A stretch of 59,467 bases of DNA, the filler included. It is 10 parts of 10 records of this genome, joined end to end, with 100 filler letters (N's around TTAATTAATTAA, not from the genome) between each part and the next. Parts side by side here need not be neighbours in the genome. Positions count along the whole stretch, not along the records: positions 48,710 to 53,974 come from SRR31147125_145591; 9 more parts are not named here. One strand, 5' to 3'. The position numbers and the translations under genes are program-made. Within the stretch, counting starts at the first letter, position 1. The number at the start of each line of letters is the position of its first letter. Under the pieces are notes generated by a model. It did not search any database. It had not been told where the DNA came from and was given only the letters and a program-made list of their open reading frames with translations. Of this stretch, positions 48,710 through 53,974 are shown piece after piece.

Positions 48710-49649
48710 CTAAATATACTAAGCTGCCGGATAATACATTGCTATATTTCCGTTCATGTTTATCAGGGATTTTTGGCGTTTTCCTAAATTACTAATTAAG
48801 AGAAACCATTCTAAAAAATCAAATACAACGACTCGATAATAATTAACTAGGCTATTAAGTTAAGTCAGCAAATCTGAGAGGCGGTGAAGCCATCACTGCA
48901 CAACCTAATCTCGTGAATAGCTGACTTTCTACTTGCCTACGATTAAACCGGTAACAAAACTCATCCAAATAGCTTTGTAGATGCTTTTTATCTAACCCGT
49001 GAAACGTTCCCCGTACGAACGATTTGGCGTTGCCGACGACGGTATGCAACCAATGCAACATTTCGGAATCTGCATCGAACACTTGATACTCGTGCAGATA
49101 CTTTTCAGACAACGGCTTCCTATAGCTAGGATAAGCATCGCTCTCAACAATTGACCCTTCTGCAATAGCATTCTTTGCAAACTTTCCAATCGTCTTGCCT
49201 TTGAGATTGGGAACGACCTGCATCTTCGCATACTGCGGTTTTCCATCTTCGTCCTTAGATACAGCGACTAAAACCTTTGTTTTCGCAGTTCCTCGACCTC
49301 TTTTACTGCCTTTCTTCGTTTTTCCGATGTAAGTATCGTCGAATTCTACGATTCCAGTCAGCATGTAATTGCCGTCTCGGTCAGCCATTGCTTTCCGTAT
49401 CCGGTGGAGTAGAAACCAAGCAGTGTTATACGGCAGCTCTAATTGCTTAGATAGCTGCATTGCGGATATACCGCGCTTATCCTGCGCAACGAGACACATT
49501 GCTAATATCCAAATACGCAGTTTAAGATGGGTTTTGTCCATTACGGTACCAGCGGTTACAGATGTTTGGTGCTTACAGTTCTTGCACTGATACTTCTTGC
49601 GAGTTTTGATATCGTAGTATTCTCTGCACCCACAGATCGGACGTAAGCG

Positions 49650-50096
49650 TCAAATGTCCTCGTCGTCCTCATCCCAGTCGTCATACTCAGGATACTGCTC
49701 AGGCGGTTCTCCTTTTGTTCGGATAACTTGCGATTCGTCGATCGATTCATCTAGTTCCTTGAGCACCCGGCACGCGAATCGCCACTCATCGCCAAAATCA
49801 AAGATATAAAGGAATTTCTTATCGCGCTTAAGGCCCGCTTTCCGCAAAGTATAATCACAGGTGTGCCGATAATCGTCTTCATCATACGGCATAGCCATAA
49901 AGTAGCTGTCTACGTGACTCCATATACGGTTATCCATAAAGAATGCGTGCGCATGATCATTCATAAAATCAAAAGCGTTTAGTATTTCATCGCTCAGCTC
50001 CTCCAGTGTGACCTGATCGGAAATTTTAATGTGTCGGTAGCAACCTGCGCCGGCAGATGCAGATATTACAAGGACTTTGGACTTGATTGGCGAAGC
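49650..50096 (-). CDS. pRiA4b ORF-3-like domain; no nearby start, probably fused to TnpC
   Basis: YRHI.I....TLEEL...IL.AFDF.NDH.HAF and FLYIFDFGDEWRF motifs; its stop codon lies inside the IS66 terminal repeat. Confidence 0.8.
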   Translation of the reverse strand, partial: ASPIKSKVLVISASAGAGCYRHIKISDQVTLEELSDEILNAFDFMNDHAHAFFMDNRIWSHVDSYFMAMPYDEDDYRHTCDYTLRKAGLKRDKKFLYIFDFGDEWRFACRVLKELDESIDESQVIRTKGEPPEQYPEYDDWDEDDEDI

Positions 50097-51633
50097 TTTT
50101 TGGCAGCAATTCCTCAACAAGTGCTGGATCACACATATCCATCTCCGGCGAAGCCTTAAGCACCCAGACCAAATAATCATATGGATTGATACCGTTTTCC
50201 TTTGTTGTCTCAATTAGGCTGTACAAGATCGCGCTAGCCTTTGCACCGCGCGCAGTGTTCGCAAATAAGAAGTTCTTTCGCCCAATTATAAACGGCTTTA
50301 TGCTTCGTTCCGCTCGGTTATTGCTAATCTCCAAACGCCCATCTAGTAGATATCTACGCAGGTATTTCTGCTGGTTTATAGCGTATTGCACCGCTTTGCC
50401 GTATGCTGATTTCCCGGAAGCGTTCTGTGTTCGCAGCCATTGAAAGAACTCTTGCGCGATAGGTGCAGATTGCTCCTGCCGTTTCAGATAGCGTTCATCT
50501 GCGGAAAGGTCAGCAAAACTGCGCTCCAACGCAAACAGCTTGTCGCAGTACTGTTTTGCACGTAACGCCAAAGAACCGGCTCGCGCCTTTTCGGGTAAAC
50601 CTTTCTGCGCCTCGTCAAATTTTCGCCGGGCATGTGCCCAGCAGCCAACCACCGTGATTTCATGCTGCAGCCGATGGTAACCCGAATAGCCATCCGCATG
50701 CAGATAGCCTTTGAAATTTGCTAAGAAATCTTTTGGACGCTGCGCTTTTCGATCCGGCTGGTATTCGTACAACACAATCGTCTGTTTTGCATCCCCGCTC
50801 GTTCGATACAGCCACATAAAGCTCTTGCTCTGCGGTTTCTTGCCTTCTTCGTGCAGCACCTGCAGCGTAGTTTCATCCGCATGGAGCACTTCGCGCTGTA
50901 AAAGCTGGTCGCGCAGCTTGTCGTATATGGGAACCAGATAATTCTCTGTACACTTAAGCAGCCAGTTAGACATTGTTTGCCGGGAAAGCGGAATACCGTT
51001 TCGCTTCCAATCCTGCTCCTGTCGATACAACGGCACACTCATTACAAACTTCTGTGTTATGAGATGCGCTACCGCCTCTGCTGATGCAATACTTCCCTTG
51101 ATTAACGGCGTATCCGTTTTGGCTTTGACAATCGGTACACTGCACGCGTTCTTTTCGCAGTCTCGGCAACCATAGGTATACTGAATATGTCGCTCGATCA
51201 CTGCCTTTGCCGGAATCAGTTTCAACGTTTCGCGTACGTTTTTCCCAATCACGTGAAGCGGTTCAGCGCATTGCGGACACGACTGCTCTTCCTCGGGTAG
51301 CGTATGCTCAATGATTTCTACCGGCAGATCCTCGGGCAGTCTTTCCTTGCACTGCGCCGCTTTCTTTCGGTAATGTGTCTTTACCTCGCTAACTTGTGGT
51401 TCCGGCACGTTTCCGTCAGCGTATACTTCTACTTCGTCGAACAGGCTCAACTGATCGTATTCGCTCTTCTCACTGGAGCTGCCGAACTGCTTACGACGCG
51501 CCAACCGCATTTGTTCCATAAGAAAATCGACCCGCTGCTGCAACTCGTTATTTTGTTGTTTTAATGCGTGAAATTCATTGGATAATGCCTGAAATTTCTC
51601 GTATTCAGTCTTTGAAATAGTGACGGTTTCCAT
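50026..51633 (-). CDS. tnpC: IS66 transposase TnpC
   Basis: FGSSSEK, CPQC/CRDC zinc finger, LHADET, LHADGYSGY, CWAHARRKF and ISNNRAERSIK. Confidence 0.96.
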   Translation of the reverse strand: METVTISKTEYEKFQALSNEFHALKQQNNELQQRVDFLMEQMRLARRKQFGSSSEKSEYDQLSLFDEVEVYADGNVPEPQVSEVKTHYRKKAAQCKERLPEDLPVEIIEHTLPEEEQSCPQCAEPLHVIGKNVRETLKLIPAKAVIERHIQYTYGCRDCEKNACSVPIVKAKTDTPLIKGSIASAEAVAHLITQKFVMSVPLYRQEQDWKRNGIPLSRQTMSNWLLKCTENYLVPIYDKLRDQLLQREVLHADETTLQVLHEEGKKPQSKSFMWLYRTSGDAKQTIVLYEYQPDRKAQRPKDFLANFKGYLHADGYSGYHRLQHEITVVGCWAHARRKFDEAQKGLPEKARAGSLALRAKQYCDKLFALERSFADLSADERYLKRQEQSAPIAQEFFQWLRTQNASGKSAYGKAVQYAINQQKYLRRYLLDGRLEISNNRAERSIKPFIIGRKNFLFANTARGAKASAILYSLIETTKENGINPYDYLVWVLKASPEMDMCDPALVEELLPKSFANQVQSPCNICICRRRLLPTH

Positions 51634-51711
51634 ACATACATTATACCATGTTTCGAGCTGCAATTACATTAAAAAGCGCCGTAAAATCAGGCGAATCAGC
51701 ACTTTTTCACG

Positions 51712-52068
51712 TTATCCAAACGCCATGCTTTCACACTGTTTTACTGCCTTTGGCTGCGCGATCGAGAGCCCTTCCATGAGCCATCTGTACTGCTGCTGTG
51801 TGATGTGCTTTGCCTGCTCCGTTGATCGCGGCCATTGGAAGCTGCCGCGCTCCAGGCGCTTATACAGCAGCACGAATCCATCGCCTTCCCAATAAAGCGC
51901 TTTAATTCGGTCGCATCGTCTGCCGCAGAACAAGAACAAGCTGTTGCTGAACGGATCCAGTTCGAAGCTCTTCTGTACAATCAGCGCCAGCCCGTCAATC
52001 GACTTTCTTAGATCGGTATATCCGCAGGCGATGTAGATGCGCTCTGCGCCGATGAAGTCGCTTAGCAT
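51712..52068 (-). CDS. tnpB: IS66 accessory protein TnpB
   Basis: TDLRKSIDGL, FLFCGRR.DRIK.LYWEGDGF.LLYKRLE.G.F.WP. Confidence 0.96.
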   Translation of the reverse strand: MLSDFIGAERIYIACGYTDLRKSIDGLALIVQKSFELDPFSNSLFLFCGRRCDRIKALYWEGDGFVLLYKRLERGSFQWPRSTEQAKHITQQQYRWLMEGLSIAQPKAVKQCESMAFG

Positions 52069-52430
52069 ATCTTCGAAAGTGCTCGGAGCGCTGTTTCAAT
52101 GGCTTCAGCATCTGCGCCGTTATGGATTTGTATTTCGGCGCCGCCGAGTTGCACGGTGACTGCGGCACCTGCGCTTCGTCGAATTGGCGTAACTTCAGTA
52201 AACACGGGCTGTTCTATTTCTTGGGACAGCGGTAATTTGACTGGTTTCGTTTCTTTTGGAATGGCTTCGCATACGCGTTTGAGTCGATAGTAATATGTCT
52301 TTTTGTTGATTCCGTGTTCAGCGCACCATGCCGATACGGTCATTCCGCTGTTTCGGCATTGGCTGACCATCTGCGCCCATTCGTTGAGTCGTCCTGATTT
52401 GTTCAGTTTCTGTATATCCATTGTTTTCAT
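52062..52430 (-). CDS. tnpA: IS66 accessory protein TnpA (HTH)
   Basis: W...V..CR.SG.TV.AWC.E.GI...TYYY; overlaps tnpB. Confidence 0.92.
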   Translation of the reverse strand: MKTMDIQKLNKSGRLNEWAQMVSQCRNSGMTVSAWCAEHGINKKTYYYRLKRVCEAIPKETKPVKLPLSQEIEQPVFTEVTPIRRSAGAAVTVQLGGAEIQIHNGADAEAIETALRALSKIC

Positions 52431-52766
52431 ACTCCAGTTCTGTCTTGAGGTCTTTCAAGGTGCCTTGAGGTGCCTCAAGTCTTCTTTGGAGTTATTTTCT
52501 CATGTTGGATACTGCGCTGTACAGGTGTCGGTTCGTTTGACGCTTACGATCGGACAGATAAATCCATCCGGCCAACGTAGTTCAAACAGAAATTCTCTGC
52601 ATTCTTCTTCGCTGTTTAACCGCTCTTGTATTTCCATAAAACTTATGCTTTTTTGCTGTGCCATAGCTTTTTTTCGCCCTTTCCGTAACTATGGCTCCAT
52701 TCTATACTACGAATTGTCCTATTTTATGGGCTTCTCTCTTCTGCGCTAAACTAATAGCCTAGATAA

Positions 52767-53090
52767 TTAATACACTACCACTCCATCCCTTGCTCTTCTA
52801 ATCTCTTCATCAGACCACTTTCTTGCCCATATCACTCTGTTTTTTCTTATGAAGTAGTGTGACCTACACTTATATGACCAATTACCGATAGACGGTGAAA
52901 GCGAGATGCTAAGTCCATCATATATCATTTTCCACTGATTGGGCGCTAGCGGAAGTGCAACTTTTTCGTTGCACCCACAGGCACATTTGTGAACAGTAAT
53001 ATTATACTGCAAACAAATATATAGCGTGTTCCTTTTAATTTTCTCAGGCACTCTCTCTACGAAGATGTGCTTAAACTTTCTTGTCCTCAT
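52767..53090 (-). CDS. DUF6527-like Cys/His-rich protein
   Basis: FVE..P, LYI, HKCACGC, W......SLSPSIGNW...CRSHYFI...V.W; overlaps the ThiF stop by 20 nt. Confidence 0.85.
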   Translation of the reverse strand: MRTRKFKHIFVERVPEKIKRNTLYICLQYNITVHKCACGCNEKVALPLAPNQWKMIYDGLSISLSPSIGNWSYKCRSHYFIRKNRVIWARKWSDEEIRRARDGVVVY

Positions 53091-53974
53091 TGATAAACTC
53101 TCCCATACTTATTTCATATACTGAATGGTAACAGCCAGCATCGTCCCTGTAAAACCCATTTAGTTGCTTCCACTTAATAACTGCCATTATAGCATTAAGT
53201 GCATTAATCTCAGCTATCTGAATATTAGACGCATATATATCCTCGTTTGAGGCTTGCTGAGAAATCCGCACTTCTACATGATCATTCTTATCAGGTGTAA
53301 CAAGCGTCGTTCGTGCAGCTCCAGATAAGTAATCTCCAATATCATTTAATCCTATCCCACAATCAATAAATGGTATCTTATACTCTATCAGCTTGTTTAT
53401 GATAATTGTTTTGCTGTCTCCAGCGTCAATGCAGATGAAAACGAAATCCAAGTCCCGCAGTAAATCACAGTTACTATCATCAACATATTCATCATGGGCT
53501 ATAATACCTTCCTTCATATTAGAGTAAATATCAGAAAAGTAATCAACTTTACTCATCCTTTTCTCAAGTACACTTTTCTCTGGTGCGCCCGGAGCTCGAA
53601 AAGCATTATGCTGATTGAACTCATCGCCGTCAAACAAGTGAATCGTCGAAACCGGTGTTTTTGCCATGAACTCAAGCAGATATGCGCCAGTTCCTCCTAA
53701 CCCTATAATGCCAATATTCTGTTTCTCCAGCTTCTCAGATATTGCTCCTATAGTTGCTCGTCCCGTATTAGTATCGCAGTACTTAAATGGCAAATCCTCC
53801 GTTGACTCTATATACTCGTGTGTGACACTCGTTACATCCGGATTAATGAACTTTGCCTGTGAGGATATTATGCCTGAATACTGCGCAAACTTATCATAAA
53901 AATTCGCATATCCTCCGCTCTTTGGCTTGCTCGAAAATGAGTGGCTCGCTACCAACCCATGCCCGAAATCCTTT
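53071..53974 (-). CDS. ThiF/E1-like adenylyltransferase with an N-terminal extra domain (DUF6791-like), 5'-truncated
   Basis: IIGLGGTG nucleotide loop, FDGD...HNAFR, SKVDY, FVFICID and NIQIAE.NALNA; preceded by SFSSKP...Y..FY.K...Y..IIS. Confidence 0.9.

Follow-up and report, generated by a model that had tools for sequence, protein, structure and literature searches.

The window analysed here, a stretch of 59,467 bases, carries on one of its contigs two overlapping open reading frames (ORFs) on the minus strand. We are highly confident that these are the distal genes of a Type II Bub operon (formerly 6E.2 or DUF6527): bubBD, cut at its 5' side by the contig end, and bubE (Table 1). The pair is an incomplete example of a known, biochemically characterised operon type. 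The name Bub for operons previously called '6E/DUF6527' comes from Ye, Gong, Chambers and Corbett (bioRxiv 10.1101/2024.11.21.623953; below, the Bub preprint). As described there, a Type II operon has genes for a ubiquitin-like protein (Ubl) named BubA, for BubBD, in which an E2 is fused to an E1, and for BubE, a Ser-His protease of the DUF6527 family. A Type I operon has the Ubl fused to the E2 and a JAB domain fused to the E1, and it too encodes a DUF6527 protein.

An earlier sequence-only reading of the window had described a ThiF/E1 domain with an extra N-terminal domain, overlapping by 20 nt a 107-aa ORF with HxCxCGC and CxSHY motifs. It had also stated that both genes are AT-richer than the adjacent IS66 element and that thiamine and molybdopterin genes are absent nearby, and it had assigned the pair to a ubiquitination-like, non-metabolic operon of the DUF6791-ThiF plus DUF6527 type. 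All of these statements were borne out. Both ORFs contain the overlap, the motifs span H34-C40 and C75-Y79 of the 107-aa protein, and the operon type was recovered from Pfam, from NCBIfam model NF004805 and from the gene order of relatives. Together, bubBD and bubE had a GC content of 0.40, compared with 0.486 in the IS66 element and 0.491 in the nine further contigs pooled, and the contig's remaining genes all belong to insertion sequences (IS). The same reading had regarded the system as little described. This view did not hold up: Bub structures and biochemistry have been public since November 2024, and Protein Data Bank (PDB) entries 9ea4, 9ea5, 9ea8, 9eae and 9eav were released on 2025-09-24.

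Identity and extent of the bubBD fragment

The 300-aa fragment encoded by bubBD matched Pfam DUF6791 (E = 2.5e-16; profile positions 84-149 of 149) N-terminal to Pfam ThiF (E = 1.7e-15; residues 79-207), and these E-values place the matches far beyond chance. The fragment also scored above the equivalog cut-off of NCBIfam NF004805 (384 bits versus 352) over profile positions 95-391 of 392; this model is PRK06153.1-4, and it is titled 'hypothetical protein'. Because the NF004805 alignment begins at profile position 95, BubBD in the window is short of about 91-94 N-terminal residues. Of the E2-like domain, the window contains just the C-terminal ~68 residues.

A homologue search yielded 7,574 proteins at E <= 0.001 among 8,000 candidates scored, and 120 of these were listed. 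Among the matches listed, almost all were 386-400 aa long and nearly all were annotated as DUF6791 plus ThiF. The nearest match listed was P0003 (391 aa), which was 88% identical to the fragment over P0003 residues 92-391. The second, P0004, was 56% identical, and the remainder of those listed stood at about 50%. The coding match to P0003 persisted up to the contig's last codon.

A tblastn search of P0003 against all ten contigs of the window for the missing 5' part of bubBD returned the known fragment only, the other six matches having E >= 3.6. Contigs of one public sequencing run, which may be the source of this DNA, span the entire stretch without differences, and one of them (1589 nt) goes 280 nt beyond position 53974, where no loose end is listed. 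We concluded that the break at 53974 is an assembly limit and not a physical end, because the run contig extends further and has no loose end at that point. The initial ~91 codons of bubBD, as well as bubA, would lie beyond the contig end.

The window consists of ten contigs of 5.0-7.7 kb each, joined by N44-TTAATTAATTAA-N44 spacers. Contig GC content within it spans 0.348 to 0.577, and the ten contigs need not share one genome; adjacency within the stretch is therefore uninformative on bubBD and bubE. On their own contig, the two genes are accompanied by IS genes only.

Catalytic residues of BubBD

We compared the fragment with relatives in two BubBD alignments, one of 14 sequences and one of 43. 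In the E2-like part, F13, S14 and P17 were invariant in both alignments, and K16 was at least 90% conserved. The adenylation site was intact: G91, G93-G96, D115, D117, R126 and D183 were all invariant in the alignment of 14 sequences. R126 and Y247 were invariant in both sets. Cysteine was absent between fragment residues 222 and 250, and no cysteine was invariant in the BubBD alignments.

In the Bub preprint, the substitutions S106A, R219A and Y342F in BubBD of E. coli ZDHYS365 abolished the BubA-BubA product (bioRxiv 10.1101/2024.11.21.623953). The equivalent Ser, Arg and Tyr of two relatives, L030 and L062, are residues 105, 218 and 341, which is a constant 1 under the numbering of the preprint, with identical spacing. 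Because the offset is constant and the spacing identical, we equated S14, R126 and Y247 of the fragment with S106, R219 and Y342 as their putative counterparts. As judged from the alignments, all catalytic residues that fall within the fragment are retained.

E2 fold of the DUF6791 domain

The structural model of P0003 had a predicted local distance difference test score (pLDDT) of 85.6; its sole segment below 50 comprised residues 336-340, around Tyr338, the equivalent of Tyr247 in the window. In a Foldseek search the closest structure to this model was Citrobacter BubCD (9ea5, E = 5e-13), and a profile search of PDB sequences also ranked 9ea5 at the top (E = 4e-8). A phmmer search of P0003 on PDB sequences reached TcdA-type proteins only, BubCD being reached with the profile.

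The E2 fold was assessed on relative L004, not on the window fragment itself. Residues 1-160 of L004, which comprise the DUF6791 domain, were modelled with a pLDDT of 87.3. VIA-align superposed this model on Citrobacter BubB (9eav_D) with Z 9.6 and a root-mean-square deviation of 3.5, aligning 119 of 128 residues. The runner-up had Z 5.8, and most other rows were UBC (E2), UEV or RWD folds. DUF6791, the extra N-terminal domain of the sequence-only reading, is therefore the E2 domain of the E2-E1 fusion BubBD. A separate upstream E2 gene is accordingly not expected, just the ~91 remaining bubBD codons and bubA.

The bubE gene

The 107-aa product of bubE belongs to DUF6527 by its Pfam match (Table 1), and its motifs read H34-K-C36-A-C38-G-C40 and C75-R-S77-H78-Y79. 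Across 16 BubE sequences, H34, C36, C40, P66, S67, C75, S77 and H78 were invariant and C38 nearly so, and the same residues were invariant in 10 close relatives. According to the Bub preprint, BubE is a protease of the Ser-His kind that removes conjugates, and its C4 zinc site is structural (bioRxiv 10.1101/2024.11.21.623953). By comparison with that account, Cys36, Cys38, Cys40 and Cys75 are putative zinc ligands, and Ser67 and His78 form a putative dyad. The spacing from C75 to H78 (+3) equals that of Citrobacter C99 and H102 in the preprint, and the 11 residues from S67 to H78 are within one residue of the 10 between Citrobacter S92 and H102. The sequence-only reading had taken the DUF6527 protein to be metal-binding. 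The C4 zinc site agrees with that claim; the idea of a merely metal-binding protein does not stand, since DUF6527 is reported to be a Ser-His protease and all six residues are kept in the window copy.

A start codon that allows a 20-nt overlap between bubBD and bubE was present in 21 of 80 related loci, and one that allows a 4-nt overlap in 41 of the 80. Neither PADLOC v2.0.0 nor NCBIfam (at E <= 1) had a model matching the window BubE. Because the NCBIfam release searched has no matching model, automatic annotation of this gene may remain 'DUF6527' or 'hypothetical'.

Gene neighbourhoods and distribution of relatives

We surveyed 80 genome loci from many bacterial and archaeal phyla, 3 of which had no upstream sequence. 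A DUF6527 ORF lay downstream of bubBD in 80/80 loci and adjoined it in 79. An ORF with a Multi_ubiq domain lay upstream in all 77 loci with upstream sequence, and in 75 of these 77 the upstream plus-strand ORF overlapped the bubBD start by exactly 26 nt. The sequence-only reading had named such a survey as a check, and the outcome agreed with it in that no sulfur-carrier (thiS/moaD) or tRNA-modification genes were seen upstream in these relatives. The reading had further placed ubiquitin-like and E2 genes upstream of the contig break. The relatives support the first of these, and the second was not upheld as a separate gene, the E2 residing in DUF6791.

The single locus of the 80 in which bubBD and bubE were apart was L024, a metagenome-assembled genome of Bacteroidales, where a 686-aa ORF (L024:6881-8941) separates them. 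All 77 BubA-type ORFs (for example L030:4995-5750), as well as BubA of E. coli ES2 (L081:3817-4572), share a conserved tail that ends in an invariant serine, not glycine. On the C-terminus of BubA, the main text of the Bub preprint speaks just of the Type I glycine (bioRxiv 10.1101/2024.11.21.623953).

A gene with an IrrE/M78 peptidase domain occurred within 4.5 kb upstream of bubA in 53 of the 77 loci. In 34 of these loci a small helix-turn-helix gene stood beside it, in a CapH+CapP-like arrangement, and in 14 the IrrE/M78 domain was part of a ~1130-aa fusion of M78, UvrD helicase and PD-(D/E)XK domains. This association agrees with the CapH+CapP association reported in the Bub preprint. The ~1130-aa fusion was found just upstream of bubA and on the same strand in L012, L015, L023, L030 (L030:1515-4907), L032, L033, L045, L048, L054, L062, L066, L073, L077 and L080 (14/77 in all), and its role may be that of a built-in regulator or sensor of damage. 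In four Bacteroidota loci, L007 (L007:1969-4458), L017, L069 and L072, a gene for a ~830-aa subtilase (Peptidase_S8) preceded bubA on the same strand.

Outside this set, E. coli ES2 (L081) carries a multiubiquitin gene, followed by one for a ThiF family adenylyltransferase and one for a 'ubiquitination-like system serine protease family protein', the last being the RefSeq name of its BubE (L081:5800-6177). The ES2 operon is part of an integrase island located at a gene for tRNA-Leu. Its BubBD has DUF6791 at residues 10-159 plus ThiF and is 44% identical to the window fragment. Among E. coli genomes, megablast gave no match and blastn found 3 of 5,426 at 63% identity. The plasmid collection gave no match to the whole-contig DNA; a protein search of it returned 139 records, all under 60% identity. 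The protein search of the phage collection gave no match among 50,697 records.

Table 1. Positions within the 59,467-base window of the bubBD and bubE genes, their domains and putative catalytic codons, and neighbouring elements.
Feature	Positions	Strand	Basis or remark
bubBD 3' fragment (E2-E1 fusion)	53071..53973	-	Open frame up to contig end; 300 codons plus stop (53071-53073)
DUF6791 (E2-like) remnant, fragment residues 1-68	53770..53973	-	Pfam DUF6791 positions 84-149 of 149; F13-S14-S15-K16-P17 motif
ThiF-type adenylation core, fragment residues 79-207	53353..53739	-	Pfam ThiF; glycine-rich loop G91-G96
Ser14 codon, putative E2 catalytic site	53932-53934	-	Invariance and numbering offset
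Arg126 codon	53596-53598	-	Invariant; adenylation core
Tyr247 codon, crossover-loop tyrosine, proposed Ubl~Tyr oxyester site	53233..53235	-	Invariant
bubE, 107 aa	52767..53090	-	Pfam DUF6527, 2e-24
Putative dyad codons of bubE	Ser67 52890-52892; His78 52857-52859	-	Roles from the Bub preprint
bubBD end / bubE start overlap, 20 nt	53071..53090	-	Translational coupling
Contig carrying bubBD and bubE	48710..53974
IS1595-family element	48837..52772	.	26-nt inverted repeats, 85% complementary, 48837-48862 and 52747-52772
IS66-family element, 2,905 bp, within zinc-ribbon region of IS1595 transposase gene	49643..52547	.	Pfam matches, ends, duplication
38-codon open frame beyond far IS1595 inverted repeat	48722..48835	-	Hydrophobic fraction 0.69 over first 16 residues

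Likeness to known systems

The window genes most resemble those of Type II Bub, of which E. coli ZDHYS365 is the prototype and E. coli ES2 a further example. They share with it a BubBD in which the E2-like DUF6791 domain precedes the ThiF E1, the Ser, Arg and Tyr that are invariant, a downstream DUF6527 partner with C4 cysteines and a Ser-His pair, and the overlap of the genes. In contrast to ES2, the window copy lacks bubA and the BubBD N-terminus within the window, its BubBD has diverged to the identity given above, and its surroundings are nested IS elements, not a tRNA-linked integrase island. The window BubE is also short (107 aa) relative to Type II Bub and is without a hydrophobic extension.

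Type I Bub (6E.1), as in the BubAB-BubCD-BubE system of Citrobacter sp. RHBSTW-00271, likewise has a cysteine-free E1 with a crossover-loop tyrosine, an E2 serine and a BubE protease. It provides the closest solved structures both for the E1 part and for the E2-like domain, although structure-based identity of the Citrobacter structures to the modelled relatives is only 9-14%. The fusions differ: Type I joins its E1 to a JAB peptidase and its E2 to the Ubl, whereas in the window the E2 is fused to the E1 and JAB is absent.

Cap2 of Type II CBASS, Pycsar and MBL systems is also an E2-E1 fusion; it gave weak profile matches over the E1 part and was among the weak E2-fold rows. According to the Bub preprint, Cap2 works through cysteine thioesters, conjugates a CD-NTase instead of a Ubl, and has the JAB peptidase Cap3 as its partner (bioRxiv 10.1101/2024.11.21.623953). 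The window bubBD, in contrast, has no conserved cysteine and is partnered by DUF6527. With ThiF, MoeB and TcdA the window E1 shares the Rossmann-type adenylation fold and the nucleotide-binding residues, but it falls far under the cut-offs of these families, carries an extra E2-like domain and has other gene partners.

Insertion sequences next to bubE

The IS1595-family element that adjoins bubE has a Zn_ribbon_IS1595 domain at 52500-52664 and a DDE_Tnp_IS1595 domain at 48855-49541. The IS66-family element nested within it carries tnpA, tnpB and tnpC, plus a PRiA4_ORF3 ORF at 49650-50213. Its perfect inverted arms measure 13 nt: the IS ends account for 12 nt, and the outermost complementary base of each arm belongs to the flank. 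The 8-bp sequence GTCCGATC is duplicated exactly on the two sides of the IS66 element. The sequencing run contains a 2905-nt contig with exactly the IS66 ends at a depth of 18.2, compared with about 8.4 alongside, and loose ends from a second IS66 insertion site also share 8 letters. Because the duplication is perfect, the depth is about twice that of the flanks and the loose ends of the second site share 8 letters, the IS66 element looks to have moved recently. No clean target-site duplication was found for the IS1595 element, the 12 nt beside its two ends matching at 8 of 12 positions. These surroundings, with IS66 nested in IS1595 and a GC content below the rest of the window, fit the tendency of Bub towards mobile DNA that is reported in the preprint.

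The 127-nt flank beyond the far IS1595 inverted repeat (48710-48836) is AT-rich, with a GC content of 0.315, and the 8/12-letter flank match lies in the same reading frame as bubE. The 38-codon open frame in this flank may be a displaced C-terminal tail of bubE, or it may be chance; a blastp comparison of the frame with 120 BubE homologues yielded no match below E 10. In the Bub preprint, a hydrophobic stretch that extends BubE at its N- or C-terminus is described as conserved and tied to membrane association (bioRxiv 10.1101/2024.11.21.623953). Truncation of bubE by the IS1595 insertion seems unlikely to us. The nearest BubE, P0123, is 104 aa long and 77% identical to the window protein; because it is equally short, the short tail is probably native to a small clade.

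We entertain one broader proposal with little confidence. The window copy, together with P0003/P0123 and P0004/P0124, might form a small divergent clade of Type II Bub, at most 56% identical to the other BubBD found, in which the BubE extension was lost; or else IS1595 might have cut the tail off and left it as the 38-codon frame. If either were true, it would serve as a natural test of whether regulating deconjugation requires the extension.

Weighing of the evidence

Several observations weigh against our identification or limit its reach. The operon is seen in part only, with bubA and the start of bubBD outside the window. The equivalences of the catalytic residues rest on invariance and numbering offsets. 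The E2-like domain has a single invariant histidine (His65 by the numbering of P0003), which falls in the missing part of BubBD; it may be the partner of the E2 serine, that is, the accompanying histidine of the preprint. Foldseek on the L004 E2-domain model gave no match at E <= 0.001, the values being 0.029 for Atg3 and 0.073 for BubB. Moreover, bubE shares its final codon and its stop with the inverted repeat of the IS1595-family element, and the C-terminus of BubE may not be native for that reason. The window BubE has 28 residues after CxSHY, compared with a median of 60.5 in the 118 of 120 homologues that have the motif; a tail of at most 32 residues is seen in only 3 of the 118. It also lacks the hydrophobic extension described as conserved in the preprint. 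Finally, the authors of the Bub preprint did not succeed in demonstrating protection against phage by a Bub operon (bioRxiv 10.1101/2024.11.21.623953), and an article in EMBO J of June 2026 (PMC13373217) repeats this.

The observations at the bubE end raise the question of whether a copy that is Type II Bub by descent could be decaying or inactive here, broken up by IS elements, with the native tail of bubE lost and the upstream part perhaps disrupted as well. The nested IS1595 and IS66 elements begin within the last two bubE codons, IS66 was recently active by the evidence given above, the tail of BubE is unusually short, and beyond the IS lies a frame with a hydrophobic start, with flanks that agree at 8 of 12 positions and share one reading frame. 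Yet both the bubBD and bubE frames are uninterrupted and retain the catalytic residues that fall within them, the equally short P0123 suggests a native tail, and the IS1595 element shows no clean target-site duplication. On the upstream side, bubBD matches P0003 to the contig's last codon, and the longer run contig has no loose end listed at 53974. We therefore regard decay as improbable, although it is the least improbable of the alternatives to an intact Type II Bub pair.

The remaining alternatives concern the identity of the E1. An adenylyltransferase of metabolism or RNA modification, such as a ThiF/MoeB enzyme of sulfur-carrier pathways or a TcdA-type enzyme of tRNA modification, might stand next to an unrelated cysteine-rich zinc protein; single-sequence searches do give low-scoring matches to models and structures of ThiF, MoeB and TcdA, and some homologues bear names of these types in database records. 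We give this next to no credence. The scores are far under the cut-offs (36 versus 159 bits for ThiF NF006395, 27 versus 304 for TcdA and 24.5 versus 266 for MoeB), whereas the specific equivalog NF004805 is above its own. The ThiF domain is fused to a BubB-like E2 fold, and the relatives invariably have Multi_ubiq and DUF6527 partners; the contig has no thiamine or molybdopterin genes, and the upstream regions of relatives have no sulfur-carrier or tRNA-modification genes. Assignment to another E1-containing system (Cap2 of Type II CBASS, Pycsar or MBL; Bil; or the JAB-E1 of Type I Bub) appears very improbable as well. PADLOC E1-E2 models of the Cap2 type match the fragment over the E1 region only, at best with 1.6e-9, NCBIfam 6A-MBL cap2_3 scores 19.9 bits, and among solved structures the E1 part comes closest to Type I BubCD. 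However, the Cap2-type matches are weak and partial, cap2_3 being far under its 320-bit cut-off, and neither the crossover loop nor the E2 site has a conserved cysteine. The domain before ThiF is DUF6791 with a predicted E2 fold, not JAB, and downstream lies a DUF6527 partner, by which Bub operons are marked according to the preprint (bioRxiv 10.1101/2024.11.21.623953).

Proposed mechanism and significance

For Bub operons, the preprint describes a conjugation route with two oxyesters, one of the Ubl to a tyrosine of the E1 crossover loop and one of the Ubl to a serine of the E2 (bioRxiv 10.1101/2024.11.21.623953). Transferred to the window copy, the ThiF-type domain of a BubBD homodimer would adenylate the C-terminus of the Multi_ubiq-type Ubl BubA, with G91-G96, Arg126 and Asp183 taking part. 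The crossover-loop Tyr247 would then accept the Ubl as an oxyester, and the Ubl would move on to Ser14 of the fused E2-like DUF6791 domain, accompanied by Lys16. In the last transfer the Ubl would pass to a lysine of the target protein, with no involvement of a catalytic cysteine. BubE, a small beta-sandwich with the putative C4 zinc site and Ser67-His78 dyad, would cleave the conjugates and so act as the off-switch. This is the mechanism as published for the family, which the window copy would be expected to follow; the preprint reports Bub biochemistry for the Citrobacter and E. coli systems only (bioRxiv 10.1101/2024.11.21.623953).

Because the Ubl gene, the promoter region and the regulator lie outside the fragment, the fragment is uninformative on targets and role. 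The physiological role is probably a stress or defence function induced by DNA damage or phage. The two genes should be annotated as a partial bubBD and a bubE belonging to a Type II Bub operon, and not as ThiF plus a hypothetical protein. They belong to a family that is notable for carrying out ubiquitin-like conjugation without any catalytic cysteine.

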